IMG/VR virus record: IMGVR_UViG_3300015607_001184
Location: 4,082 to 68,081 of that record
Reading direction: 5' to 3' (one strand)
Source: a virus
Taxonomy: Duplodnaviria > Caudoviricetes
Length of the DNA: 64,000 nt
The position numbers were made by a program, and so were the translations under genes. The notes under the pieces are model-generated. The model had not been told where the DNA came from. It did not search any database and was given only the letters and a program-made list of their open reading frames with translations. Position 1 is the stretch's first letter. The number at the start of each line of letters is the position of its first letter. Below are positions 2,905 to 35,804 of this stretch, one piece after another.

Positions 2905-3359
2905 TGCCTCGCGTTCTCATCTGCGGTGGCCGCACCTACGGATACATCCCGGCCTATCCGGAGCCCGGCCATGTCGAGGAGTGGCGTGCCGCCGTCCAGC
3001 GCGGGCAGAGGCAGCGTGACGCGCTTAACCACCGTCTCGACAGGCTGGTGAGCCGCTACGGGCCCGAGAACCTGACGATCATCCACGGCGCGGCGAGCGG
3101 GGCGGATGAGCTTGCCGGGGCATGGGCGCACGACAGCGGCATTGACGTGATCGCCTTTCCCATCACCGACGAGGAATGGGCGCGCTGGGGCAGGGCTGCA
3201 GGTCCCAAGCGCAACGCCCGCATGCTGCTGCAGGGCGAACCCGACCTCGTCATCGCCTTCGAAGGCGGCAAGGGCGCCCAGAACATGGTGCGTCTGGCGC
3301 GCGGCGCTGGCGTGACTGTCGATATCGTGGAGGCGGATCAATGCGCCGTGCTGACCTGA
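2904..3359 (+). CDS. YspA/DUF2493-like SLOG-fold protein
   Basis: RVLICGGR, IIHGAASGAD, GRAAGPKRNARML, PDLVIAFEGGKGAQNM; TGATG overlap with portal stop. Confidence 0.88.
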   Translation: MPRVLICGGRTYGYIPAYPEPGHVEEWRAAVQRGQRQRDALNHRLDRLVSRYGPENLTIIHGAASGADELAGAWAHDSGIDVIAFPITDEEWARWGRAAGPKRNARMLLQGEPDLVIAFEGGKGAQNMVRLARGAGVTVDIVEADQCAVLT

Positions 3360-6300
3360 ACGCATTGATGGACCGCTTGCGCCAGTCTTATGGCGACGAC
3401 GCGGCGCGGCGTGTCGAAAGGGCGGCTGACGAGGTCCATGGCCTCGACCAACGCTACACAGACACGGCCCTTCATCATGCATTTGCAGGTAACGCGGATT
3501 CGGCGCTGGTCGCCATGAAGCCCGGCGATTTCGAGAAATACGCGGCTCGCCTGCCCGAGAAGGGCTATCCGGATTACGGCTATTTCGACTGGGATACGGG
3601 CGCCGACCTCGATTACGACCAGTACATGGACTACCTCAACACGATTGAGCACAGGGGCGGTCTGTCGGACGTGCCGTTCCTCAATGTCGGCCACGAGGAA
3701 GGCGCGGACCTGCCTTATGTCGGGGCTCATGAGGGGCGCCATCGCATGCGCGCCATGGCCAAGGCAGGCAAGCCGACGGGCCTCGTCATGATCCGCCCGT
3801 CGGGACGGCTGGAGGAGAGCCTCCGGCACGGGCCGACCTATGAGACGGCCTACCGCGATTCCAACCAGAAAAGGCAGGCCCTGCTGGATCACCTCGCGGC
3901 GCATGACCGCATGGTCTACCCGCAGAAAGAACGCGACAGGCAGGACGACATTCGCGGCCCGGAGCAGCTTCCGGAGGCCTTTTCCAAAGGCGGGATCACT
4001 GGGAAGCCCTCGACAGTGAAGATTCCCGGCCACGGCGAGATCGCGGCCGACGAGATCCCCGAGGTGATGGCGGCCAAGCGCTCCTATATGGGACACCGCT
4101 TCGGCGACCCGCGTAAGGCGGACATCGACGGCTATACGCCATTCGACGAAGCGCACGCCCGCAAGATCGCCGAGGCCTACGAGGCCATGCAGCACGCCCC
4201 GCACGATCCGGCCGTGCGGCGCTCCTACGAAGCCATGATCGACGAGACGCTCGACCAGTACCACGCGCTCAGGAACGCCGGATACGACTTCCATTTCATG
4301 CGCGACGGCGAGCCTGACCCCTACGCGGAATCGCCCGCGCTGGGCTATCTCGACGCCAAGGATGGCCGCCTGACGGTGTTCCCGACCGATCAGGGCTACG
4401 GCATGTCCATGCTCCACAGCGAGGAGATGAACCCGCTGCTGAAGCGCGTCGGCCGCATCGGCGACCTCGACAACGCCACGGCCAACGACGCCTTCCGGGC
4501 GGTCCACGATATGTTCGGCCACCACGGCCCGGGCAACCCGTTCTTCCGCCACAAGGGCGAGGAGCGGGCGTGGGAAGCGCATTCCAGAATGTACTCCGAC
4601 GACGCGCTCCCGGCGATGACCTCGGAGACGCGCGGCCAGAACAGTTGGCTGAATTTCGGCCCGCACGAGGAGTACAACCGCACCGCCAACGGCGCCGACA
4701 CGATCTATGCCGAGCAGAAGGCAGGCCTGATGCCGGAGTGGACGTGGCGCCGCCACAGGCGCGCCGACGGGGGCTCGATCCCCGGCCGCGAGCTGAACGA
4801 GCTTGGCATGTACTCCAAGGCTCTGGAGGAGGCCAAGGCGATCAGGCAGCCCAAGGGCAAGCTGTCCGATTTCCTGCGCTATCTGAAGGGCGGGCTGGAG
4901 GAGTTCCGGCGTGGCGGGTGGGTGGATCGCGGTGGCTATGCCCGGGGCGGCATCGCCGACTATCAGGACGAACTCGACAGCGCCAACCGCATGATGAGCC
5001 CGGACGAGGAGGGGCTTCTGGCCTATCCGCGCGACCGCTACATTGACCCACACTACCGCGTGGGGGCGCTCAAGGGCTGGACCTTGAACCCGAACCTGAG
5101 GCAGGACAGGTTCCTCGACTACCCCAGCGTCAACGACGACATCGGGGCGCCCTACTTCAACGGCTGGAACGAGAACAAGGGGCGCTTCCGCAACTACGCC
5201 GACGGCGGTGCGGTCGAGCGTGAGCATTTCGAATTCGGCGGCTTTCAGGACAACTCTCGCCCCGGGCAGGCGGGCGACCCGGGTAACTGGGGAGCGTGGG
5301 GCAATGGCACGGAGGACGTGTCGGTACGCGATGCGCAGGCAGCCGGGCTGCGGGCGGGCCTGTCACGCGCCGAAGTGGCCTACGGGCAGGTTCCCGGAGG
5401 TCTTGGCTACCGTGGGGGCAGTGGCACGAGCCTGACGAACCTCCCCGAGCTGAGCGCTGCCAACCTTGCGCGCGCTGGTATCTTCAACCCCGGCGAGCGC
5501 CGGGTGTCAGGAAACCCGGCGGACGCGGCGACGGGCATGGCGCAGCCGGGATCCGTCCGCGAGGCTCTTGGGCTCGGCAAGATGCCCGAGCAGACCCAGA
5601 CGCCGGAGCAGGCGGTGCAGCAGGTTGAGGCGCAGCGCAGGCAGGCTGCCGCCGCTTCCGACCCTTCCGGCTTCAACGGGCTGGCTGGCGGCACGGTGGC
5701 GCTGGCGGCCTTCGGCGCGCTGCCCGGGCAGCACAAGCCCGGCGAGGACATGACGACGCCTGCCGACACAGGGTTCATGTCGACGCCCGAGCAGAACAGC
5801 TACAACCGGTTCATGGACACCGCCCGCAACACCTACATGGAGGCGGGGAACCAGAGCGACGAGGGCATGCTGGGTGTCGCCTTCTCGGCGCCGAACCGCA
5901 CCGCCATCAATTATGGCGGCATTGGCCCCGGGGGCATCGACACCACCGGCTACAACGACCCCAATGCCTCGTTCGACGAGAACGTGACGCGGAATATCTA
6001 CGCCCCCAAACAATACAGCTGGACGAACCCGGCCCTGAACAGAAAGACCGGCGTGGTGAATGTCGACCGCGCTCGCGACATCGCCGACGCCGAAATGGCC
6101 GGGGCGCCGGATCGTGCGCAGCGTGCCTATGCGGCTGCCTATGCGCAGCAGTTCGGAGGGGCGACGGACCCGACCTATGGCGCCGTGTCCTACCACGCCG
6201 ACTATGTCAGCCCGGCGTGGCGCCGGGACGCAGCTTCGCTGGGGACGCCCACGGTCATTGGCGACCACACCTTCTACGGCGGCAGCCCGCCCACGGCCAC

Positions 6301-7795
6301 GCAGGTGGCGGGCCCCGGCGCAGCAAGCGTCCTGTCCACCATGGCGGACCCGTGGGGCTTCTCGCACATGACGCCGGTGAACGATCTGGCTACGGCGCCG
6401 CTGTCGTGGACGGACCGCATCGGCGCGCCCCCGGCAACACCTCTCGGTTCCCCGCGCACGCCCACTCCCGCCTCTGCCTACAGCGTGGGGGAGGATGCCA
6501 CGCCTCTCGGCTCTCCGCGCACGCCGACCCCGGCCACGGCCTATGCCCCGGAGGGCGCCACGCGCACATGGGCGAACCCGATTTCGGTGCCCTATTCCGA
6601 CCCCGGCTTCGAGCGCCCGGGCTACGACATCTCGGTCTATCAGGGCGTCCCGCTGGCCGACATCACGCCGGTGCGTCCTTCCGCGCCGACGCTCACGGAG
6701 CAGGCCTACAACCCGCTGTCGTCGATTCGTGCACCTTCCGTTGTCGACCCGTTCACGGCGAGGAAGGTGCAAACCGAAAGGATCTCGCCGCCCTCCGAGG
6801 AGCCCAGCTACACCCGGGCGCCCTATCACGACACGGTCTACGATGCGCCTGCCGCGACGGCAGCCGCCGTGGCGCGGCGCATGGGATGGCACGACAGCGT
6901 CTACGACGCACCTTCGGCACAGGCATCGCCGCTTGGATCCCCCCGCACGCCGACGCCCGCCAGCGCCTATGCCAGCCCCGAAGCGGCCCCGGCTGCCCCG
7001 GTGGCGCGCCCGGCGGCGCCTTACGGAACGCGCGGGAACCCCCTTTCGGCCGCAGACATGGCTGCCGTCGGGCTCGGCGACGCGACACCGGCGCAGCTGC
7101 GCAGCTATCGCGCCGATATCCCGCGCGGGTCCATGATCAGCTCTGACTCTCCGTACTATGGCACCCGCAACAACCCGTTGTCGGACGCCGACATGGCGGC
7201 TGCAGGCCTTGGCGACGAGCAGTCCTTCTCGAAGAAGTACCTCGGCTTCCGGTCGAACGACGAGGTCGATGCCGACAACAAGCCCTACAAGGATCCCGAG
7301 ACTGGCCAGTGGGTCGATCCGCGTTTCTCGCGCACGCCCGTCGGCATGGCGGCTCTCGGCCTTCTTGGGCTCGGCCTGACCGCCGTCTCGCCGCCGCTGG
7401 GCATCGCCTACGGCCTGTCGGCGCTCATGGGCAAAAGCCCCCTCATCAATGGCGCTGACAGGCTGGCCAGCCGCTTCGGCTTCGACGGCCGCACGACGAC
7501 TACGGATCCCAATGCACCGAGCGCGTGGGGCAGCCTGAAGAGCGGCGTGCAGGGCCAGTCTTACGCGCCCGGCTATGATGGCGCCGGGACAGGGCGCTCG
7601 CTGTCATCGTTCAACGGCAATAGCGGTGGAAACGGCTACAGAATGTACGACCCCGTTCCCGGGCCCGTTGCGAATCCAATCGATGTGAAGTCCAAGAAGA
7701 AGGCAGCGGAACCGAAACCGGAACCGGTCAGGCCCTCCGATTGGAATGACATGGCCTCGTGGCAGCAGGAACTCTGGAGTGACACCTATGGCTGA
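3341..7795 (+). CDS. Large multidomain (polyvalent) virion/internal protein: ParB-like domain, HDxxGH domain, SleB-type cell wall hydrolase, repeat tail
   Basis: ATG 3341 with GGAGG upstream (track start 3176 too early); HEGRHR motif, RAVHDMFGH..GEE motif, EA..GM..V..NR / QYSW / D.TYGAVSYHA.YV.P.W / IGDHTFY hydrolase motifs. Confidence 0.75.
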   Translation: MRRADLNALMDRLRQSYGDDAARRVERAADEVHGLDQRYTDTALHHAFAGNADSALVAMKPGDFEKYAARLPEKGYPDYGYFDWDTGADLDYDQYMDYLNTIEHRGGLSDVPFLNVGHEEGADLPYVGAHEGRHRMRAMAKAGKPTGLVMIRPSGRLEESLRHGPTYETAYRDSNQKRQALLDHLAAHDRMVYPQKERDRQDDIRGPEQLPEAFSKGGITGKPSTVKIPGHGEIAADEIPEVMAAKRSYMGHRFGDPRKADIDGYTPFDEAHARKIAEAYEAMQHAPHDPAVRRSYEAMIDETLDQYHALRNAGYDFHFMRDGEPDPYAESPALGYLDAKDGRLTVFPTDQGYGMSMLHSEEMNPLLKRVGRIGDLDNATANDAFRAVHDMFGHHGPGNPFFRHKGEERAWEAHSRMYSDDALPAMTSETRGQNSWLNFGPHEEYNRTANGADTIYAEQKAGLMPEWTWRRHRRADGGSIPGRELNELGMYSKALEEAKAIRQPKGKLSDFLRYLKGGLEEFRRGGWVDRGGYARGGIADYQDELDSANRMMSPDEEGLLAYPRDRYIDPHYRVGALKGWTLNPNLRQDRFLDYPSVNDDIGAPYFNGWNENKGRFRNYADGGAVEREHFEFGGFQDNSRPGQAGDPGNWGAWGNGTEDVSVRDAQAAGLRAGLSRAEVAYGQVPGGLGYRGGSGTSLTNLPELSAANLARAGIFNPGERRVSGNPADAATGMAQPGSVREALGLGKMPEQTQTPEQAVQQVEAQRRQAAAASDPSGFNGLAGGTVALAAFGALPGQHKPGEDMTTPADTGFMSTPEQNSYNRFMDTARNTYMEAGNQSDEGMLGVAFSAPNRTAINYGGIGPGGIDTTGYNDPNASFDENVTRNIYAPKQYSWTNPALNRKTGVVNVDRARDIADAEMAGAPDRAQRAYAAAYAQQFGGATDPTYGAVSYHADYVSPAWRRDAASLGTPTVIGDHTFYGGSPPTATQVAGPGAASVLSTMADPWGFSHMTPVNDLATAPLSWTDRIGAPPATPLGSPRTPTPASAYSVGEDATPLGSPRTPTPATAYAPEGATRTWANPISVPYSDPGFERPGYDISVYQGVPLADITPVRPSAPTLTEQAYNPLSSIRAPSVVDPFTARKVQTERISPPSEEPSYTRAPYHDTVYDAPAATAAAVARRMGWHDSVYDAPSAQASPLGSPRTPTPASAYASPEAAPAAPVARPAAPYGTRGNPLSAADMAAVGLGDATPAQLRSYRADIPRGSMISSDSPYYGTRNNPLSDADMAAAGLGDEQSFSKKYLGFRSNDEVDADNKPYKDPETGQWVDPRFSRTPVGMAALGLLGLGLTAVSPPLGIAYGLSALMGKSPLINGADRLASRFGFDGRTTTTDPNAPSAWGSLKSGVQGQSYAPGYDGAGTGRSLSSFNGNSGGNGYRMYDPVPGPVANPIDVKSKKKAAEPKPEPVRPSDWNDMASWQQELWSDTYG

Positions 7796-25153: not shown

Positions 25154-25363
25154 ATGCTTAATGACCTCGTGACCGCTTTGAAAAATGCAGTAACGGCCAT
25201 ATCGTTAATCAATCAGACGCTGCGCAGCGTCTTCCCCTACGCCACGGGGACATCATCGACCGCAACAGCCGGTGCCGCATCGCTTCCGGCAAATCCGGTC
25301 GGCTTCATCACGATCACCCTTCCCGACGGCACGTCGGCGAAGGTGCCGTACTACAACACTTGA
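25154..25363 (+). CDS. Small tail protein
   Basis: C-terminal LPANPVGFITI..G...KVPYY motif seen in phage tail proteins; RBS AAGGA. Confidence 0.55.
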   Translation: MLNDLVTALKNAVTAISLINQTLRSVFPYATGTSSTATAGAASLPANPVGFITITLPDGTSAKVPYYNT

Positions 25364-25370
25364 GGGCGGC

Positions 25371-27971
25371 ATGGCTGACGATTTCACAGAAGACCTCGCC
25401 TCGACCGCCGATCTGGCAGACGCCACCACGTCTGACGAGCAGCATCGCATGGAGATCGAGCGAGCCAAGCGCCGCACGATCAAGACCGTCTCGCTGACCG
25501 ACAACGAGAAGGCGCTGCTAGACCGCGTGGCCGACAAGAACCAGCGCAAGAAGATCGCGGAATCGATTAAGAGGACCAAGGGCCGTTTCCCGGTGTCGGA
25601 GGGCTGGGCCGCACCGGAAGCGAGCAAGCTGGTCACCAACAAGGCGGGTGAGCTGAAGACCGACAAGAGCGGGACGCCAAAGATCGGCTACAAGGGCATC
25701 GGCTTCAACTACGACCGCGACGACGCCGGAAAGAAGCTGCAGCGCTACACGCCGGAGTACGACCGCGCCGTCAAGGCGGTAACCAACCGGGCGCTGAACG
25801 AGATCCGTAAGACAATCGCGCGCGCCGAGGCCGGTGACCTGAATGCCCAGAAGACGCTGCGGCAGGTCGGCTGGTATCGCGAGGCGATGAAACGCGAGAT
25901 CGACCGGCGCGGCGGTGCCCACATGGCCTTCGCCGACCTGCTCGGGGCGACATCCCCAAACACCGTCGTCTCGGAGAACTATAAGCTGGCCGACCTTGCC
26001 CAGCAGGGCCACGCACGGGGCGACTTCGACGCACAGAACGAGTTCATGGCCCGGTACAACGGCAACATGAACGACTACCCTGAAGATCAGCTGATCAGAA
26101 AGAAGAGCGGGGCCCAATTCGGCATGAACAGCCGAACCGCCTCCATGGCGATGACTGACCGCTGGTCGCAGGAGGAGCCCGGGCAGGCACCCAAGGCGCG
26201 CAATTTCTCCGGCAACCTGTCGGGCCGCTCGGACAAGGCCACCATCGATGTGTGGGCGGCGCGCTTCCTCAACCGCATGGCCCAAAAGGCCCGCGTCCCG
26301 GTGCCGTCGCAGATGGGCGTCGAAGGCGACATGCGCCCTGACAGACCCGACCGCAAGATGGTCGGCCCGGTCCGGCTGCGCGCCTCCGGTGAGTTCGGCT
26401 TCGGGCAGGACGTGTTCGACATGCTGGCCAAGCGCCTGAAGACGACAGGCGAGCTGGCGCCATACCTGAAAGAGCTTGGCTACAAGCACGCCACGCCAGC
26501 CGACCTGCAGGCGCTGACGTGGTTCATCGAGAAAGAGCACTGGGCCAAGAACGACTGGACCTCAGCGGCAGGCGAGGGTGGCTCATTCGAAGATGAGCAG
26601 GCGCGCCAGCCCTTGCACCGCTATCAGGCAGGGTTCTCGATCCAGCAGGACGCGCCGCCGAGCGACGAAATGATGCACGAGGCCGCCCAGCACATCCACA
26701 ATGGGTTGGCGAGCGACGACAAGGTGCGCGTCTTCCGCGTCAATCCGACCTATGGCCGGTACGGCGGCGAGAACGAGCGCAGTTTCGACTCCGAGGTCAC
26801 CGCGCACCCGGACTGGGATCCGAGCGACTGGATGATCCGTCATCTGGAGCTGGCCAAGCAGCACAACCAGAAGGACGTGTTTTTCTCACGCCGCCTCGAC
26901 CCGGAGGAGGCCGACGAGCACCCCAACGCGCGCCCGGGCGTCGAGATCTATTTCAAGAACCGCAAGGCCATGGAGGCGGCCCAGCCGGTCCTCGACAGGT
27001 TCACGAACAAGGGCATTGACGGCTTCACCTACATCACCGACCTGCGTCACTCCCACCGCACCGCCAAGGGCGCCGACAGCAAGGACTACGTCGGCGTCAG
27101 GCTGCAGTGGGTGCCGGAGATCTCGCAGCGCTGGGACGACGAATTGCGCGACCGCTGGGAGCAGGATCCAGAGGCCCTGAAGGCCGACAAGATGGACGCT
27201 CTGGAGCGCATGCAGGACGTGATTCACCATCTTGATAAGCATAAGCACGGCATTGTTGACGCACGCATCCATAATTATGATACAGTGGTATCTGGGAAAG
27301 AGGACTACGATGACCACATCCGTGAACTCAGAGAAGCCCAGCGCACATCTGGAAATGCTGCGGGAGCAGCTCGCACGGTCGCTCCGCAAGTACGGGGAGG
27401 ACTCTCTCTCCACGAGAACATTGCGCGCCGAAATCGCGCGCTTCGAACGGCGGAGGAAGGAGGGTCGTCAGGACCACCACCAGCACTGGACGGCGGGCCG
27501 GACCTGAAATTCAAGAAGGGCGGCAAGGTCCCGCCCTACGAGCCGGGGTCGCCGATCCACCATCCGGTGGCCGACGATCCTATCATCATTGGCGCCATCG
27601 AGAGCGACGTGCCCGGCAGGACCGACAAGCACGAGTGCTCGGTCCCCGCCGGTTCCTACGTCATCCCCGCTGACGTGGTGAGCGCGCTCGGCCAAGGCAA
27701 CACCTTGGCTGGGCAGCGGGTGCTTGACCAGCGCTTCCGGCAGGGCCAGCACGGCCTCCCCGACATTCATGCCCACATGGCCAGAGGCGGCCCCGCCACG
27801 ACGGTCCCCGTCGTTCTGGCGGGTGGCGAGTATGTCGTCGCCCCGGCAGCCGTGGCGCGCGCTGGTATGGGCAACCTTGACCGGGGGCACCGGGCGCTCG
27901 ACAAGTTCGTGCGAGCAACCCGCGCCAAGACCGTGAAGACGCTGCGCAAACTGCCTCCGCCGAAGAAGTGA
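25371..27971 (+). CDS. Polyvalent internal/ejection protein: helical DNA-acting domain, SAM-lyase-like domain, tandem GEYV domains
   Basis: ATG 25371 after GAGGG; motifs GWY, LLGATSP, KARNFSGNL.G..ATIDVWAAR; GRY..ENERSF..LAKQHNQKDVFF; GRTD...GSYVIPADVV..LG and GGEYVV. Confidence 0.7.
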   Translation: MADDFTEDLASTADLADATTSDEQHRMEIERAKRRTIKTVSLTDNEKALLDRVADKNQRKKIAESIKRTKGRFPVSEGWAAPEASKLVTNKAGELKTDKSGTPKIGYKGIGFNYDRDDAGKKLQRYTPEYDRAVKAVTNRALNEIRKTIARAEAGDLNAQKTLRQVGWYREAMKREIDRRGGAHMAFADLLGATSPNTVVSENYKLADLAQQGHARGDFDAQNEFMARYNGNMNDYPEDQLIRKKSGAQFGMNSRTASMAMTDRWSQEEPGQAPKARNFSGNLSGRSDKATIDVWAARFLNRMAQKARVPVPSQMGVEGDMRPDRPDRKMVGPVRLRASGEFGFGQDVFDMLAKRLKTTGELAPYLKELGYKHATPADLQALTWFIEKEHWAKNDWTSAAGEGGSFEDEQARQPLHRYQAGFSIQQDAPPSDEMMHEAAQHIHNGLASDDKVRVFRVNPTYGRYGGENERSFDSEVTAHPDWDPSDWMIRHLELAKQHNQKDVFFSRRLDPEEADEHPNARPGVEIYFKNRKAMEAAQPVLDRFTNKGIDGFTYITDLRHSHRTAKGADSKDYVGVRLQWVPEISQRWDDELRDRWEQDPEALKADKMDALERMQDVIHHLDKHKHGIVDARIHNYDTVVSGKEDYDDHIRELREAQRTSGNAAGAARTVAPQVRGGLSLHENIARRNRALRTAEEGGSSGPPPALDGGPDLKFKKGGKVPPYEPGSPIHHPVADDPIIIGAIESDVPGRTDKHECSVPAGSYVIPADVVSALGQGNTLAGQRVLDQRFRQGQHGLPDIHAHMARGGPATTVPVVLAGGEYVVAPAAVARAGMGNLDRGHRALDKFVRATRAKTVKTLRKLPPPKK
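27310..27507 (+). CDS. Overprinted 65-aa protein in +1 frame inside the 25371-27971 gene
   Basis: GAGGA 6 nt before ATG; GC-ending codons in this frame; helical sequence LREQLARSLRKYGEDSLSTRTLRAEIARFE. Confidence 0.55.
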   Translation: MTTSVNSEKPSAHLEMLREQLARSLRKYGEDSLSTRTLRAEIARFERRRKEGRQDHHQHWTAGRT

Positions 27972-28029: not shown

Positions 28030-28512
28030 ATGGTCGACTACGCCACAGAGGTCCGTCTCGCGGTCCAGTCCGACGAAGAGGACATCATGGTCCTGTGCCG
28101 GTTACTCCACAAGGAGAACGGCCTGTGGACGCTCAACGAGCAAAAGGTGCGCCATATGCTTCGGCGCGCGTGGCGTAAAGAATTTGCCATTGTCGGAATT
28201 GTCGGGAAACCCGGCGCCCTTGAGGGCATGATCTTGCTGGTGCTCGACCAGCCTTGGTACTCGGACGACTGGATGCTTGAGGAGATGCTCAACTACGTTC
28301 ACCCGGAGCATCGCAAGTCGGGCCACGCGAAGCGCCTTGTCGAGTTCGCGAAGAAGACATCGGAGGGGCTTGGTATCCCTCTGATGATCGGCATCATCTC
28401 AAATGAGCGCACGGAAGCGAAGGTAAAGCTGTACCAGCGGCAACTGGGAAGCCCGGCTGGAGCCTTCTTTGTCTACGGAGCCCGAACGGGCGACGTGGGG
28501 GCGGAGCACTGA
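28030..28512 (+). CDS. GNAT-fold acetyltransferase preceding ejection proteins
   Basis: PWYSDDWMLEE..YVHPEHRKSGHAKRLVEFAK acetyl-CoA motif A. Confidence 0.75.
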   Translation: MVDYATEVRLAVQSDEEDIMVLCRLLHKENGLWTLNEQKVRHMLRRAWRKEFAIVGIVGKPGALEGMILLVLDQPWYSDDWMLEEMLNYVHPEHRKSGHAKRLVEFAKKTSEGLGIPLMIGIISNERTEAKVKLYQRQLGSPAGAFFVYGARTGDVGAEH

Positions 28513-28513
28513 C

Positions 28514-31500
28514 ATGGGTTCGAAGAGCAGCAAGCCGACCACCACGGTAACTCAGGCCGGGATCCCCGACTACCTGAAGAAGAATTACGAGACGCTGACC
28601 AAGGCGGCGACCAAACTGGCGACGCAGCCATTCAACCCGTACAAGGGCGAGATGGTCGCGGGCCTGACGGCGGCTCAGGAGCAGGCCATCGCCCGCATGG
28701 GCGAAATTCAGGGCATTGGCGACCCGTATTTTCAGGCTGGCGCAGACGCGCTGAGCAAAGTCGGGCAGTTCACCGACAAGGCGCTGGAATACGGCGACAA
28801 GGCGCTAACCTACACCGACAAGGGGTCGCAGTACGGGGCGACCGCCGCAGAGATCGCGGGCGACCTCCGGAACACGCAGATCACGCCCATCGAGTGGAGC
28901 CAAGAACAGCTCGACAAGTACATGAATCCCTATCAGGCCGAGGTCATTCGGGCTACGATGGGGAACATCGCCGAGAACAACGCCCAGCAGATGCAGGGCC
29001 TCATCGGCAACGCCATTTCCAAGGGCGCATGGGGCGGCGACCGGGCAGGCATCGCTCAGGCCGCCATGGCGCGCCAGCAGGATTTGGCGGCAAACCAGAC
29101 GCTGGCGCAGCTCAACGCGCAGAACTACCAGCAGGCGATGGCGCAGTTCAACGTGCAGCAGCAGGTTGACTTGCAGCGGCAGCAGGCCAATGCGGCCCTG
29201 AAGGCGCAGGCTGGCGGCATGTACACGGGCCTTGGCGGCCTGCAGGCACAGCTGGGTGGCGTGACCGGCCAGCTGGGGAGCATGGCGGCGCAGCTCGGGC
29301 AGGTGCAGGCTGGCGTCGGATCTGCCTATGGCTCTCTCGGCACGGGCATCTCACAGGCGGCGATCAATCAGGCCATGGGCCTTCTGCAGGCGGGGACCGT
29401 CGAGCAGCAGACCAATCAGGCCTACGACAATGCCCAGTATCAGGAGTTCATGCGCAGGCAGCAGTTCCCGTACCAGCAGCTTGGCTTCCTGTCGAACATC
29501 TACTATGGCCTCCCGGCGACCAACACCGGCACTTCGTCGACTTACGCTCCGGCCCCGTCCATGGGGTCGCAGATCGGTGGCGCGCTGCTCACCGGCCTTG
29601 GCGCCCTGTCTGACCGGCGGGCGAAGAAAGACATCGAGGGCCTCGGCCAGCTGAACGGCCATAACCTGTACAAATTCAAGTACAAGGGCGATCCGGACGA
29701 GCGCGAGCAGGTCGGCTTCATGGCCGACGAGGTCGAGAAGACGCACCCCGAAGCCGTCTCGGTGCGCCCCGACGGCCTGAAGCAGGTCAATTACGCTCTC
29801 GCCATGGCGGCCAAGTCTGCCGACGAGGTGACCCGCCAGAAGCGCGCATTTGGCGGCGGCCTCGGCGTCATGGACGATCCGTCCTTCGACCCCACCGCCG
29901 GAGGGTTCTCCGGCGTCGAGATGCCTCTGGATCGGCTGGCCCGGGCGCGCGCTGCGACCTCGGCAATCGAGTCCGGCGGGCGCTATGACGCTCTCGGCCC
30001 CATGGTGAAGGGCGACCGCGCCTATGGCCGCTATCAGGTCATGGGCAAGAACATTCCCAGCTGGACGGAGATGTATGCCGGGCGCCGCATGACGCCGGAC
30101 GAGTTCCGCGCCGACAAGGGGGCTCAAGACGCGGTCTACAACGGTCGCATGGGGATGTATCTCGACAAGTACGGCCCGGAGGGCGCCGCCCGGGCGTGGT
30201 TCACAGGATCCCCGACGGGCAAGGGCTCGGATGGGTACACCAGCGCCGACGACTACGCCTCCCGGTTCATGAAGGGGTACAACGGCGGAAACGCCGACAT
30301 CCCGCGCGGGGAGGAGGCGTCTTACACGCCGCCCGCTTCGGCCAATGATGGGTCCGATTTCAAGGGCGGTCTGGGCTGGTTCGACAAGCCGGGGCTGCTG
30401 ACCGGGGACATGATGTCGGGCGACATCCGCATGGGCCTCATGCAGGCTGGCGCGGCCATGATGGCTTCCAAGAGCCCCTATGCCGGGCAGGCGATTGGCG
30501 AGGGGCTGCAGTCCGGCCTTGGCGCCTATGCGGAGCTGCAGGAGAAGCGCCGCCGGGATGCTCTGGCGCAGTCGCAGATTGCCCACAGCAAGGGCGCACT
30601 GGGTCTGGCCGAGCGGCGGCTCAGTGCGGAAGTTCCGGAGATCGAAGCAAGGACCGCCGAGCTGAAACAGCGCACTGCGGCAGAGCGTTGGGATATTCGC
30701 CCCGGGCTCACTGGTTGGCAGGTCATCGACAGGACCAACCCGCAGGCTGGCGCTGTGATGGTGCCGTTTGGCGGACGATTCCCCGATGGCACAAAAGCCC
30801 CTCCCGCACCGGCTGGAGCATCGCCTGCCGGTGGCGGAGGCGCGGGCGGGGCTCCTACATCCCCTCCGGCTTCGCCCGCGCCAACCGCGCCCGCCGCGAC
30901 CACCGACCCAACGTCGGAATCCGGCAACCATTACGATCCGATCACCGGCAATGTGCGCCCCGGCCTGCCGCAGGACGGCTTCGCGCCGCCGCCCGCGCGC
31001 AGCGAGCCCGGCATCACCGAGATGGACCACAACGGCAACCGCTATCTGTCGGACGAGCCCGACGATCTGGCTCAGCCGGAGCAGTACCCGACCAACCCGC
31101 AGGCCTTCAACCCGGAAGCGCAGCCGGGCCTGTTGGCGGCGGGGCGCGAACAGTTGATGGCCGGGCAGGAAGCGGCCGAGAAGGCGCAGCAGGCCAAGAT
31201 CACCGCGCAGAACATGCGCGAGGCCATGTCGATCTTGAACAGCAATCGCTTCACCAAGGGCGGCGCAAATTTCGAGGAGAGGCTTGCGCTGGTGAAGAAG
31301 ATCAACATGATCGCTAACCTGATGGGCAAGCAGGCGCCCTACCAGAACGAGGAGGCGGCAGCCAACTCGCTGCAGAAGGACACGTTCCGCATGGGCATGC
31401 AGGCGCTGCAGTCGCTGGCGGGCGGCCAGCGCGAGGCGGGCTTCATGCAGCAGGCTGGCATCGGCGCCGTACCCAATGGCGAGCAGAACGGGCTTGGCCA

Positions 31501-31786
31501 GCAGCGCCTTATGGCGTCGCTGGAGGTGCAGTCACAGCGCATGATCGACATGCAGCGCTTCCGCGAGCAATGGGCGCGGGGGACCGGCGGCGACCTGACC
31601 GGCGCCGACAGCTACTTCAACCAGAAGCGGCCACCTTCCTACTACGCCCGCAAGACGGTGCTCCTGTCGGTGCCGCAGCCCGCCATCGCCGAACTGATGG
31701 CCGACCCCACCCCGTCCAAGATGCGTATCTTTGACAGCCATTTCGGCGCTGGGACTGCCCGACTTATCGTGACAGGGGGGCATTGA
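28514..31786 (+). CDS. DNA ejection/pilot protein with internal S74-type autocleavage domain and lysozyme-like domain
   Basis: TTTVTQ..IPDYLK, YMNPYQ, GAWGG.R, Q.PYQQLGFLSN; LSDRRAKKDI..YKFKYK..GFMADEVEK..P.AV; AIESGGRY..AYGRYQVM. Confidence 0.78.
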   Translation: MGSKSSKPTTTVTQAGIPDYLKKNYETLTKAATKLATQPFNPYKGEMVAGLTAAQEQAIARMGEIQGIGDPYFQAGADALSKVGQFTDKALEYGDKALTYTDKGSQYGATAAEIAGDLRNTQITPIEWSQEQLDKYMNPYQAEVIRATMGNIAENNAQQMQGLIGNAISKGAWGGDRAGIAQAAMARQQDLAANQTLAQLNAQNYQQAMAQFNVQQQVDLQRQQANAALKAQAGGMYTGLGGLQAQLGGVTGQLGSMAAQLGQVQAGVGSAYGSLGTGISQAAINQAMGLLQAGTVEQQTNQAYDNAQYQEFMRRQQFPYQQLGFLSNIYYGLPATNTGTSSTYAPAPSMGSQIGGALLTGLGALSDRRAKKDIEGLGQLNGHNLYKFKYKGDPDEREQVGFMADEVEKTHPEAVSVRPDGLKQVNYALAMAAKSADEVTRQKRAFGGGLGVMDDPSFDPTAGGFSGVEMPLDRLARARAATSAIESGGRYDALGPMVKGDRAYGRYQVMGKNIPSWTEMYAGRRMTPDEFRADKGAQDAVYNGRMGMYLDKYGPEGAARAWFTGSPTGKGSDGYTSADDYASRFMKGYNGGNADIPRGEEASYTPPASANDGSDFKGGLGWFDKPGLLTGDMMSGDIRMGLMQAGAAMMASKSPYAGQAIGEGLQSGLGAYAELQEKRRRDALAQSQIAHSKGALGLAERRLSAEVPEIEARTAELKQRTAAERWDIRPGLTGWQVIDRTNPQAGAVMVPFGGRFPDGTKAPPAPAGASPAGGGGAGGAPTSPPASPAPTAPAATTDPTSESGNHYDPITGNVRPGLPQDGFAPPPARSEPGITEMDHNGNRYLSDEPDDLAQPEQYPTNPQAFNPEAQPGLLAAGREQLMAGQEAAEKAQQAKITAQNMREAMSILNSNRFTKGGANFEERLALVKKINMIANLMGKQAPYQNEEAAANSLQKDTFRMGMQALQSLAGGQREAGFMQQAGIGAVPNGEQNGLGQQRLMASLEVQSQRMIDMQRFREQWARGTGGDLTGADSYFNQKRPPSYYARKTVLLSVPQPAIAELMADPTPSKMRIFDSHFGAGTARLIVTGGH

Positions 31787-34700
31787 GTGGAAGACGATCC
31801 CTTCGTCAAATACACCCGGCCGGGGTGGAACACGGAAGGCCAGCCGCCCGACATCCCGGAAGGCGGCGAGGATCCGTTCGCCAAGTACGTGCCCGGCTAC
31901 CGCAAGCCGTCGCAGACCAGCCGCACCAAGGATTTCGTACGGCAGCTGGGTGTCGGCGCCGTGCGCGGCGTCGAGATGGGCGCTGGAGCGGTCGGGAGCG
32001 CTCAGCATTCGTGGGATCAGGGCTGGGGCGGCATGATCAACCGTGGCGTCGCCCGCGCCGGGGCCGGAGCCTACAAGCTGTTCGGTGGCGACCCCAAAAA
32101 GGCCGACGAGTTCGTCGCCGACATCGACAAGCTCAACCCCATCGGCGAGGAGGAGGGCGATAGCTATAACGGCATGCCGACTGCTTCCGGCATGTTGAAG
32201 GCGGGAGAAGCCGTGCACGGCGCTCTGCCGGAGCCCGAAACCGACGATGGCAAGTATGGCCGCACCATCGGCGAGTTCGTCCCCTTCGCCACCAACCCCG
32301 CAGGCGCATTCAAGCAGGGCGTTCGTAAGGGTATTTGGCGGGCAGCAACGGATCTAACTGTTGGCGCCGCTGTCCCGGGGGCAGTCTCGGAGGCCGCCGG
32401 GCAAGCGACAGAAGGGACCCCTTTTGAAAGCGCGGCGCGTTTTGGTGCTGGCCTCTTGGGCGGCGCCGGGGCTGCTGGTGTGCGTGGTGTTGCTGGCGCC
32501 GCCCGCGAGGCCCGCGTGGCGCAGAGGCAGCTGAACAATTCCGAAGGCCAGATGCAATTGGCTGGACAGCGCATTGCCGACGCCGCCAATGCCGAGACGG
32601 CGGCAAAACGCGCCCGTCTTGCTGACCAGCTGGAGACAGAGCCAGTTGGTGCCCCCGGCGTCCATGAAACGACGGCGCAGCGCATCGGAACAAATTCCGG
32701 ACTCTATGATCTAGAAGAGCGGATGCGCGGCACCGATGCCGGTAGGCGCCCCTTCGCGGCGTTGGCGGAAAGCAACAACCAGCGCCTGACAAATGCACTG
32801 GAGGGCATGGAGGGGCAGACCAGCGCTGGGGAAGTGTCGCAGCAACTGCGTGCTTTGCGTGACGATATGGCCAGACGGGCGGATCAGGCTGTGGAGGCGG
32901 AGCGCGCCCGGGCGCGCGCGTCATCAGCCGCCATTCCGGATGAGCCCGCCCAAACGGTTGGGCAGGGCATCCGCGCCACCGCGCAGGACTGGCAGGACCG
33001 CGTGCGCCGCTATGTCTCGGGGCTCTACGGCATCGCCGAAAAGCATGGTGTTAACGCCGTCGATCACGGCCCGCTACTGAACAAGGTCGATGAGGTCTAT
33101 CGGCCCGATCTGTTCAAAGAGTTCACTGCGCCGGAAGTGAAGTTGGCTGAAGAAATCCGATCCTCTGCCGGGCAGATGCCAACCCTGAAACAGCTTGACA
33201 GTCTGGCGGGGCGAATATCGCGAGAGATGCGTGAAGCCAATAAAACCGGCGACCGACAGGTATATGGCCGCTTGACGCAGGTTCGGAGCGCTATTGAGCA
33301 GTCAATCGACGACACCATCGCGGCGCGCATCGCTCGCGAAAACAGCATGGTTGCAGCCGGAAGGATGATGCAAGAGGATACGCTTGGTAGGGCTATTGGG
33401 CGATATCATGCTGATTCCGACCTCATCCATGTCGACGCAAGAGCAGCTGGTGTGGGGGGACCGCCTTCTGGACCATCTGGATACGCTTCGACCCGGATTC
33501 CGCGAGATCCTGCTCTACAAGATCAGAACCGACCCGAACCCGGAACCGGTGGCCGTCGCAGCCCTGCGGGGCTATTACGAGATCTTCGGGGACGGGATGT
33601 ATCTGGATCTGGCGAACGATCCTTAGGGGTAGGCGCGCGGGCCTTGCGTCGGGCGCGCGGTGCCGCGCGCATGCAGCACGAAGTGTTCGATCAGGGCCCC
33701 CTTGACGATATTCTTGCGCCCGGGCGCGGCGTGAGAGGCTCTTATGGAACGCCCGAAAGCGATGTCCCCGGAAAGGTCTGGATAGCGGGGCGCCGGGGCG
33801 GCGAGACGATCCAGCAGTTCCTGCGCGGCCAGCAAGCGGCACGGCGCCCGGCTGATCAGGCTCTACAGCAGGTGTCGCAGGCAGCGGCCCTGTCCCTGCG
33901 CAACACGCGCGGCGCCTTCCGGCCGGACGGCACGCTCGACCCGGCCGTATACAAGGCGTGGGCCGAACGCCATAAAGAAGCGCTGAACGCCCACCCTCAA
34001 CTGAAGCAGGTGCTTGGGTCGGTGCAGCGCGCCTCCGAGACGCTCGACGCAACGGCCAAGACCGGCGCCCAGAAGATCGCCAATTTTGAGAAGGGAGCGG
34101 TTGCTGACCTGATCGGGCTACGCGACTCTAGTAGCGTGACCAAAGTAGTGGGCTCAATCATGCGCTCGCCTGACCCTGTCCAGAACATGCGCGAACTGGC
34201 GCAGCGCGTCGGTCGCAACCCGGACGGGTCGCGCAACGAGACGGCTTTGCGCGGCCTGCGTCGCGCCATCGTCGAAGACATGATGGGAAAGATCCAGAAC
34301 AAGACCGACATGGGTGTCACCGGTGGCCAGAAGTTGTCGTTTGGCCAAATGCGCAGCTATCTGAAGCAAAATCGGGCGGCAATGGCCACCGTCTTCCCGT
34401 CCGAGCAGATCCGGCAGATGGATCGTATCCTTGCCCAGATGGGCAGGCTGGAACGCTCGCGTACAGCCACCGTGTCGGTGCAGGGTGGTCCGGGAACAGC
34501 TGAAAAGATCCTCGCTCAGGGCCACAAGATGGCCAGCACCTCGCCAAGCTTTCTCGATGTGCTGTTCTCCTCGCAGGCTATGGGCGAAACGGCCGGAGCG
34601 GTGGCTGGAAGCGCCGTCGGCGCGCCGGGCGTAGGCGCCATGGTTGGGCGCCATATTGGGTCGGGTTACGCGCTGGCCAAGTTCCTGCTTGGCAAAAGCG

Positions 34701-34903
34701 CTCGCGCGGGACTTGCCACAGTCGACGATCTTGTTGCGCAAGGCATGATGGACCCTCAGTTTGGCGCCATGCTTCTGCGTAAAGTTCCGCTAGAATTCAA
34801 ATCCGTTGCGCACATGAAAATGTTCGCAAATAGCTTTGAGCGAACTCTTCTTGCTTCAATGAACTCTGCCAACGCACCCCGGGGCGAAGACGATGGCCAG
34901 TAG
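31787..34903 (+). CDS. Large helical DNA ejection protein (P22 gp16-like position)
   Basis: DPFVKY/DPFAKY N-terminal repeats, Gly/Ala-rich segment, long helical body; GTG start coupled to previous stop. Confidence 0.65.
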   Translation: MEDDPFVKYTRPGWNTEGQPPDIPEGGEDPFAKYVPGYRKPSQTSRTKDFVRQLGVGAVRGVEMGAGAVGSAQHSWDQGWGGMINRGVARAGAGAYKLFGGDPKKADEFVADIDKLNPIGEEEGDSYNGMPTASGMLKAGEAVHGALPEPETDDGKYGRTIGEFVPFATNPAGAFKQGVRKGIWRAATDLTVGAAVPGAVSEAAGQATEGTPFESAARFGAGLLGGAGAAGVRGVAGAAREARVAQRQLNNSEGQMQLAGQRIADAANAETAAKRARLADQLETEPVGAPGVHETTAQRIGTNSGLYDLEERMRGTDAGRRPFAALAESNNQRLTNALEGMEGQTSAGEVSQQLRALRDDMARRADQAVEAERARARASSAAIPDEPAQTVGQGIRATAQDWQDRVRRYVSGLYGIAEKHGVNAVDHGPLLNKVDEVYRPDLFKEFTAPEVKLAEEIRSSAGQMPTLKQLDSLAGRISREMREANKTGDRQVYGRLTQVRSAIEQSIDDTIAARIARENSMVAAGRMMQEDTLGRAIGRYHADSDLIHVDARAAGVGGPPSGPSGYASTRIPRDPALQDQNRPEPGTGGRRSPAGLLRDLRGRDVSGSGERSLGVGARALRRARGAARMQHEVFDQGPLDDILAPGRGVRGSYGTPESDVPGKVWIAGRRGGETIQQFLRGQQAARRPADQALQQVSQAAALSLRNTRGAFRPDGTLDPAVYKAWAERHKEALNAHPQLKQVLGSVQRASETLDATAKTGAQKIANFEKGAVADLIGLRDSSSVTKVVGSIMRSPDPVQNMRELAQRVGRNPDGSRNETALRGLRRAIVEDMMGKIQNKTDMGVTGGQKLSFGQMRSYLKQNRAAMATVFPSEQIRQMDRILAQMGRLERSRTATVSVQGGPGTAEKILAQGHKMASTSPSFLDVLFSSQAMGETAGAVAGSAVGAPGVGAMVGRHIGSGYALAKFLLGKSARAGLATVDDLVAQGMMDPQFGAMLLRKVPLEFKSVAHMKMFANSFERTLLASMNSANAPRGEDDGQ
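33384..33626 (+). CDS. Overprinted ~80-aa protein in +1 frame inside the 31787-34903 gene
   Basis: AGAGGA 5 nt before TTG; strongly GC-ending codons in this frame; globular-looking sequence while the host frame is G/P/R linker. Confidence 0.55.
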   Translation: MVGLLGDIMLIPTSSMSTQEQLVWGDRLLDHLDTLRPGFREILLYKIRTDPNPEPVAVAALRGYYEIFGDGMYLDLANDP

Positions 34904-35804
34904 CTACACTACCAACAAAAACATCGAGAAGCCCGCTTCCGGCGACTACCCCGGAGCTTGGGCTGCTCCGATCAATGCTAACTGGGACCTGATCGACAGC
35001 GCTCTCGGGGCGACGCTTTCTTTGGCGCTGACCAACGTCAACGTGACGCTGTCGCGCGTTCAGGCCGGAAACCTGATCATCAAGCTGACCGGCACCCTGA
35101 CCGGGAACGTCCAGATCACTTTCCCGGCCTATGGCGGCTTCTGGGTGGTTTCGAACGAGACGACCGGGTCGTTCACCGTGACCATCGCCTGCGCTGGCGG
35201 CGGCACGACGATCACGGCAGCCCAGTCGGCGCGCACCATCGTCATGACGGACGGCACCAATGCGCGCATCGCGGATGACCGCGTCGTGCCCTCCACCGTG
35301 GCCGGGCCTCCCACGGGCGAGATCTCCATGTATGGCGGTTCGACGGCCCCCACCGGCTGGCTGGAATGCGACGGGGCGGCCATCTCGCGCACCACCTACG
35401 CCGCGCTCTTCACGGCGATCAGCACCAACTATGGCGTCGGAAACGGCTCGACCACGTTCAATGTCCCCGACTTCCGTGGCTACTTCGCGCGCGGCTGGGA
35501 CCATGGGCGCGGCATCGACACGGGCCGCGCGCTCGGCACGACACAGACCGGAAACGTCGGCACCCACACGCATTCCGGCACCACGGCGTCGAACGGCGAC
35601 CACACCCATAACGTGACGAATGCCGCTTGCGGCCTTGGCGGTGGCGCCTACAGCAACAGGCCCTCGTCGTTCGCCTCCACGGGGCCGACGCCGGGCACCG
35701 ACACGGCTGGCGCCCATACCCACACCTTCACAACCGACAACGGCACGCAGACAGGCGAGACGCGGCCGGTGAACCTGTCTGTGATGTTCATCATCAAGAC
35801 CTAA
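34893..35804 (+). CDS. Tail fibre protein with tail-collar domain
   Basis: PTGEISMYGG..APTGWLECDG..ISRTTYAALF..I...YG.GNGSTTFNVPDFRG.F.RG; HTH repeats; ETRPVN. Confidence 0.9.
   Translation: MASSYTTNKNIEKPASGDYPGAWAAPINANWDLIDSALGATLSLALTNVNVTLSRVQAGNLIIKLTGTLTGNVQITFPAYGGFWVVSNETTGSFTVTIACAGGGTTITAAQSARTIVMTDGTNARIADDRVVPSTVAGPPTGEISMYGGSTAPTGWLECDGAAISRTTYAALFTAISTNYGVGNGSTTFNVPDFRGYFARGWDHGRGIDTGRALGTTQTGNVGTHTHSGTTASNGDHTHNVTNAACGLGGGAYSNRPSSFASTGPTPGTDTAGAHTHTFTTDNGTQTGETRPVNLSVMFIIKT

Follow-up and report, generated by a model that had tools for sequence, protein, structure and literature searches.

Genes lying out of frame inside other phage genes are already known as a kind. In phage lambda, Rz contains the whole of Rz1 in its +1 frame; Rz encodes the inner-membrane spanin and Rz1 a lipoprotein that has a signal sequence and a lipobox Cys, and both are translated and act in the late phase. 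In phiX174, B lies inside A and E inside D as complete out-of-frame embedded genes, and B serves as an assembly helper (Barrell et al., 1976, cited in PMC8227390). In hepatitis B virus (HBV), the spacer of the polymerase lies over preS/S, and of two overlapping frames, the one whose codon usage resembles that of the genome is regarded as ancestral (PMC8227390). Here, we describe a candidate embedded gene in 64 kb (the window, which is the whole stretch analysed) of the 68,081-bp uncultured phage record IMGVR_UViG_3300015607_001184, rated complete by CheckV. It is an open reading frame (ORF) of 72 codons at positions 33408-33626 on the plus strand, nested in the +1 frame of the gene at 31787-34903 (the host gene), which encodes the 1038-amino acid (aa) virion-module protein P0001. 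What is new compared to the described systems is a conserved, unannotated small-protein family in the virion gene of relatives.

As in Rz/Rz1, the small candidate gene sits entirely inside a larger gene of the same strand in its +1 frame. Unlike Rz1, the predicted peptide possesses no Cys, and thus no lipobox, and no signal-like N-terminus; moreover, its host is a virion protein of ~1000 aa which nothing links to lysis. With phiX174 the locus shares a complete phage gene out of frame in a larger one. There, however, the overlaps belong to tiny single-stranded DNA genomes under strong size pressure, whereas here a 68-kb double-stranded DNA phage is concerned, with an overlap limited to the spacer. 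Like the HBV polymerase, P0001 carries a disordered spacer between conserved domains, which is probably the second reading of DNA predicted to encode an ordered protein. Nevertheless, HBV belongs to a different virus realm, the proteins are unrelated, and the nested gene of the window is tiny and lies wholly within the spacer.

A gene-like reading frame within the spacer of P0001

The ORF had been described in an earlier note on this DNA as 80 codons in the +1 frame (33384-33626), starting from TTG with AGAGGA 5 nucleotides (nt) upstream. All of this was found in the sequence as described: the Shine-Dalgarno-like AGAGGA lies at 33373-33378 (plus strand), the stop codon is TAG at 33624-33626, and the frame is +1 relative to 31787-34903. 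A second TAG (33630-33632) follows two codons past the stop, the +1 frame is closed upstream by a stop codon at 33366-33368, and in-frame ATG codons are present at 33408 and 33429. The ORF is complete within the host gene, on the same strand and in a different frame, which is what defines an embedded gene, and in a public assembly it was called as a 72-aa protein (P0013). The host frame across it (33407-33634, plus strand; approximately residues 541-616) encodes a spacer rich in G/P/S/R and written with rare A/T-ending codons, which joins the conserved N- and C-terminal halves of P0001.

Using a codon log-odds score trained on the other genes of the window, 62.5 bits were obtained for the nested ORF, while true in-frame segments reached 62.7 bits on average. 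All +1-frame control segments from other genes (1269/1269) scored below the nested ORF, with a maximum of 61.3 bits. The host frame over the ORF scored -5.8 bits, corresponding to the lowest 1.3% of in-frame segments. The GC content at third codon positions (GC3) of the host frame falls to 0.36-0.46 across 33362-33661, and the respective +1 column shows 0.69-0.82. The core of the spacer has GC values of 0.78/0.66/0.40 at the three host codon positions, which is the GC3/GC1/GC2 profile (third, first and second codon position) of an ordinary gene read in +1. Both the marked codon bias of the ORF and the T/A-ending codons of the G/P/S/R linker in the host frame, as noticed earlier, were confirmed quantitatively. 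When all genes of the window were scanned, a signal of this kind appeared at no other gene-internal site in the 64 kb; the remaining matches were located at gene starts or on doubtful ORFs.

Openness of the +1 frame alone is weak evidence. When the host peptide was kept and genome-typical codons were redrawn, the +1 frame was open in 27% of the redraws. When the codons actually used were shuffled among synonymous sites, it was open in 1.5% of the permutations, and with the small peptide fixed, the host frame was open in 9% of the codon redraws. From the latter two values we conclude that both frames were kept open, and openness of the host frame is itself selected. Since genome-like codon usage is taken to mark the ancestral frame, the small frame is probably the older one, with the linker overprinted on it. 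The central idea of the earlier note, a small gene in the disordered linker of a large virion protein, is upheld by the conservation in relatives described below, but its assignment of the small gene as the overprinted frame should probably be reversed, as codon usage points to the linker. A nested frame that carries the selection, with the spacer of the large protein nearly free to vary, would turn the usual view of overprinting around.

The sole close relative of the window, an IMG/VR contig from a different sample with 96% nt identity (L001), allowed a direct comparison. Across 33408-33626, 2 substitutions were found in 219 nt, compared to ~6.7 expected from the local rate. Both of them (33437 and 33623) fall on third positions of the +1 frame and are synonymous there, while one causes an Ala to Ser exchange in the host frame. 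A single-sequence AlphaFold2 (AF2) model of the ORF reached a predicted local distance difference test (pLDDT) value of 69.6 (core 77-83) and contains three helices at residues 10-24, 29-41, and 45-60, counted from the ATG.

A conserved nested family in related virion genes

Four spacer-containing homologs of the host gene (L005, L010, L011, L012), which were all the spacer homologs read as DNA, show the same picture: GC3 of the host frame drops in the spacer, no stop codon interrupts the +1 frame there, and the resulting peptides are similar to each other. In pairwise BLASTP comparisons, the +1 peptides matched with E values of 1e-5 to 1e-13, and the host-frame peptides of the same DNA with 0.02-3. 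Nucleotide identity by +1 codon position was 0.48/0.54/0.41 in these relatives, with the third position of the host frame as the most conserved one. For a close pair (L041/L042), 29 differences were distributed 5/4/20 over the +1 codon positions; 18 of the 29 are synonymous in +1 and 4 of the 29 in the host frame.

Profile searches yielded six small proteins that had already been called (P0019-P0024) and 16 more loci. Of the new loci, 14 are metagenomic or viral, and in 13 of these a long ORF of 998-1665 aa contains the small one in its +1 frame. The same nesting was found in prophages of two isolates, Aureimonas jatrophae DSM 25025 (NZ_FNIT01000002.1, around 690.8-698.0 kb) and Rhizobium sp. 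BK316 (NZ_JACHZR010000006.1, around 9.7-16.9 kb). Among the loci of the family are L010:4978-5187, L041:3001-3207, L051:3447-3698, and L052:3456-3671. The alignment of 22 members (A8) displays the motif LPFLAHxEQ(R/K)AK...DLxxLRAIxDYR. Members have a length of 56-75 aa. The motif is preceded, at a distance of 20-32 codons, by a start codon in 14 of 17 loci, in most cases ATG. The AF2 model of the family shows three helices (12-20, 25-42, 45-62; pLDDT 77.9). The open stretch of the +1 frame reaches far upstream in some relatives, with 154 aa in L036 and 150 aa in L046; in L010 a +1 stop stands immediately before the ATG. As judged from these sequence comparisons, the equivalent nested gene of the relatives is conserved and under purifying selection; we consider the comparative evidence strong in the relatives and moderate for the window phage itself.

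A single family member, L048:415-585, was found outside a long ORF. It has a strong Shine-Dalgarno sequence (GGAGGG) and may be either a free-standing copy or part of a poor contig. It was not counted as a free-standing copy, the 1045-nt soil contig carrying no convincing gene.

With distant homologs (23-33% identity), P0001 can be aligned both upstream and downstream of the nested ORF. The host block upstream of the spacer ends with 'AVAAG.M..EDT' and the downstream block begins with 'AL.RL..A..AT...FD.G'. The segment in between is a variable G/A/S/P spacer in some homologs and a large in-frame insertion in others (P0003, P0009), and is missing altogether from L013, L015, L017, L018, and L019. 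The two insertions, available as protein records only, lie at the position of window residues ~555-615, and that of P0003 contains PF18763. Because of these large in-frame insertions, the spacer site behaves as an insertion hotspot. Alignment A1 was too divergent for use in a scan, and exact-pattern scans of metagenome and genome contigs yielded no closer host relatives.

Relatives that lack both the linker and the ORF, the existence of which had been raised as a check, were indeed found with L013, L015, L017, and L018. A family copy elsewhere was not found on the five linker-less records searched, four of which are fragments and one of which is near complete. A quick maximum likelihood tree calculated for the host proteins groups L013, L015, L017, and L018 in one clade (support 99), which is sister to the ORF-bearing L012 and lies inside the ORF-bearing diversity (support 97). 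The simplest reading of the tree would be the joint removal of spacer and ORF by a secondary deletion. From this joint loss, the spacer appears to exist because of the nested gene. The window and L001 form a long branch at the base of the tree, with 23-28% identity to all others.

Comparing the ORF of the window with the A8 family, the agreement lies in position and layout. Both lie in members of one host gene family, are flanked by the same pair of conserved host blocks, and are read in +1. The ATG follows the host 'AG.M' anchor by 17 codons in the window, 18 in L010, and 17 in L005, and the stop codon lies 89 codons after 'AG.M' in the window and 87 in L010. Lengths are similar, as are the boundaries of the three predicted helices when compared by residue ranges, and both hosts show a low-complexity spacer of low GC3. 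In contrast, no sequence similarity is detectable; the invariant Glu and the EQ motif of the family are absent from the window peptide, which is acidic (net charge ~-5 by hand count), whereas the family members are roughly neutral. It is plausible that the ORF of the window is the diverged counterpart of the family gene, related by descent. A protein of 70 aa would be expected to drift beyond recognition at the divergence seen for the host protein. As an alternative, an unrelated small gene may have replaced the family gene at the same slot.

Start site, proposed expression and rival explanations

Of the two candidate starts, ATG 33408 is likelier than TTG 33384 according to the comparison with the relatives, since it is positionally conserved, while AGAGGA and a +1 Leu upstream change in L001. 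At position 33394, L001 carries an exchange that is synonymous in the host frame and converts Leu to Pro in +1, which argues that the stretch 33384-33407 is not under constraint. This stretch (plus strand) would become an N-terminal extension if TTG 33384 were used, giving the 80-codon version. AGAGGA-N5-TTG, proposed earlier as the start signal, is thus present in the DNA, but disfavoured as the true start. A scan for internal promoters and terminators found nothing.

Combining these results, we propose that 33408-33626, possibly from 33384, represents a genuine protein-coding gene embedded in 31787-34903 in the +1 frame, with a probability of about 0.68 as estimated from the sequence comparisons. 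It would encode a small acidic protein of three predicted helices. The host frame of the same DNA would provide a flexible G/P/S/R spacer as the link between the conserved N- and C-terminal halves of P0001. The late structural mRNA would serve for translation of both frames, the small one starting at its own internal start codon, ATG 33408. The spacer would then be the secondary reading, tolerated as a spacer needs almost no particular sequence.

We are aware of several observations which weigh against this proposal. Selection on the ORF of the window itself is read from two substitutions and one close relative. Against the hidden Markov model of the nested family, the ORF gave no significant match (E=18, 1.4 bits), and hhalign returned a probability of 0.1-0.2% for the same relationship. 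Among 1.84 billion representative proteins, the search recovered the ORF itself (P0013) and otherwise spurious repeat matches, and the free-standing homologs that had been suggested earlier as a check were therefore absent from this collection. Searches of Pfam and PHROGs with the ORF and the family members, of PDB and BFVD with Foldseek, and of the Atlas found no known family or fold, and none of them assigned a function. Three-helix bundles are generic, and the likeness of the predicted folds may count as soft evidence. Furthermore, the translation signals are weak: AGAGGA is AGAAGA in L001 (G33376 is A) and hence not conserved, and ATG 33408 has no good Shine-Dalgarno sequence. The repeat matches mentioned above concern long repeat proteins (P0014-P0018, E values of 3e-12 to 5e-6) with Ca-binding DxDGDG-type units of beta-helix or FG-GAP proteins. 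They were rejected, as each repeat contributes ~25 bits and the totals are summed over near-identical repeats.

Among the rival explanations, a relic coding signature ranks highest. According to this explanation, the spacer DNA derives from a once-functional small gene, either the ancestral nested one or an inserted one, only the host frame is used now, and too little time has passed for closure of the +1 frame. The missing similarity to the conserved family and the weak, non-conserved start signals would fit such a scenario, as would the 27% openness with typical codons in GC-rich DNA and a sole relative which, at 96% identity, would not yet make decay visible. However, codon adaptation of the ORF is complete and not eroded (62.5 versus a mean of 62.7 bits), and along the very long host branch an unselected frame should have lost both openness and bias. 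With the A/T-ending host codons actually used, just 1.5% of the permutations left the +1 frame open. The single-sequence fold, with its core pLDDT of 77-83, and the two substitutions, both synonymous in +1, point in the same direction. Overall, we regard a relic as unlikely. A paired set of assembly frameshift errors, or a chance open frame with a bias caused by the Gly/Pro/Ala-rich linker, can be set aside with much more certainty. It is true that the G6 run at 33453-33458 and the G4 runs around 33620 are prone to errors, and that codons for Gly, Ala, and Pro increase GC at the first two host positions with or without a second frame. Nevertheless, the 90%-identity cluster of P0001 spans JGI, ENA, and Logan assemblies with an identical or nearly identical host-frame spacer, the DNA of L001 is identical across the G runs with the same frames, and an analogous layout occurs in isolate genomes. 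Amino acid composition, in turn, explains neither the host GC3 of 0.36-0.46 nor the conservation of the +1 protein in relatives. Assembly errors, named earlier as a possible cause, are effectively refuted by the layout shared among independent assemblies and isolate genomes, and an artefact of either kind is very improbable.

The +1 peptide might also be reached without a start codon of its own. A +1 frameshift near 33381-33386 (AGAGGA, 4 nt, CUU GGU) would yield a truncated product consisting of the N-terminal half of the host protein and a three-helix tail ending at TAG 33624. The programmed +1 frameshift site of prfB served as comparison. The arrangement of AGAGGA, followed after 4 nt by a CUU that reads UUG in +1, is loosely prfB-like, and the weak internal start signals and the far upstream openness of the +1 frame in L036 (154 aa) and L046 (150 aa) would be in agreement with frameshifting. 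At a prfB-type site, the slippery codon stands before a stop or slow codon and a Shine-Dalgarno sequence lies 3 nt upstream, and this combination was not found at AGAGGA-N4-CUU. Instead, GGU follows CUU, leaving neither a stop nor an evidently slow codon in the A site. Moreover, the motif is AGAAGA in L001 and is not conserved in the other relatives either. In L010, the +1 stop stands directly before the ATG, and the start codon kept in 14 of 17 loci would not be needed for frameshifting. In the window, the stop at 33366-33368 confines any shift to a few codons. We consider frameshifting improbable, somewhat more so than a relic, and favour an independently started nested gene.

Host gene context, possible roles and further observations

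The host gene (31787-34903, plus strand) is preceded by a gene for a phrog_4287 'DNA ejection protein' at 28469-31786 and followed by a tail collar fiber gene at 34893-35804. P0001 had no match in Pfam, in PHROG, or among PDB sequences, the latter searched with the host profile. The label 'ejection protein' was derived for it from gene order alone, as it sits after the phrog_4287 gene; a match to a known ejection-protein family was not found for P0001, and its role in ejection is putative. The designation as the largest ejection protein, also made earlier, was wrong, as the products of 3176-7795 (1539 aa) and 28469-31786 (1105 aa) exceed its 1038 aa. Among the INPHARED phages, there was no match for the ORF of the window, for a nested-family member, or for the host homolog P0006. 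P0001 itself obtained a single match there, Rhizobium phage RHph_N65, with 37% identity over 16% of its length. A member of the nested family elsewhere in the genome of the window was not found.

Regarding function, we tentatively suggest that the small product may act together with its carrier virion protein, as a partner or assembly helper. A broader and more doubtful idea treats the spacer as a cassette slot, in which lineages would keep different out-of-frame genes (the A8 family, or an unrelated three-helix protein in the window) or in-frame domains (PF18763 in P0003). Each small protein would then be a cis-encoded partner of its carrier, be it chaperone, lock or inhibitor, and nested partner genes in virion linkers would represent a general, unannotated principle. 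If true, nesting would enforce co-inheritance and co-expression of the small protein and its virion protein. Gene callers forbid nested genes, and as a consequence such small proteins are missing from phage annotation. The family resides in a virion gene of phages infecting Rhizobiales, and with two copies in cultured bacteria, translation and function are directly testable.

The locus had been presented earlier as one of two independent cases. While the case at 33384-33626 was substantiated, that of the +1 ORF at 27310-27507, inside the gene at 25272-27971, is much weaker, and a pair is therefore not established. The sole relative is 99% identical in this region. The +1 frame of 27310-27507 scored 29-31 versus 15-16 for its host frame, with a GC by host codon position of 0.80/0.61/0.52.

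Further observations concern the host gene as a whole. Its overall GC3 of 0.69 is the lowest among the large genes of the virion module, with values of 0.82-0.85 for the neighbours. A second, milder GC3 dip is found at 32312-32760, where the +1 column shows 0.76-0.84; this region contains no long +1 ORF (57 aa at 32361-32534). Finally, substitutions between the window and L001 strongly cluster at the beginning of the host gene, within 300 nt (31787-32100), many of them non-synonymous, while long stretches elsewhere contain none. This distribution suggests a recombination mosaic or a fast-evolving N-terminus.

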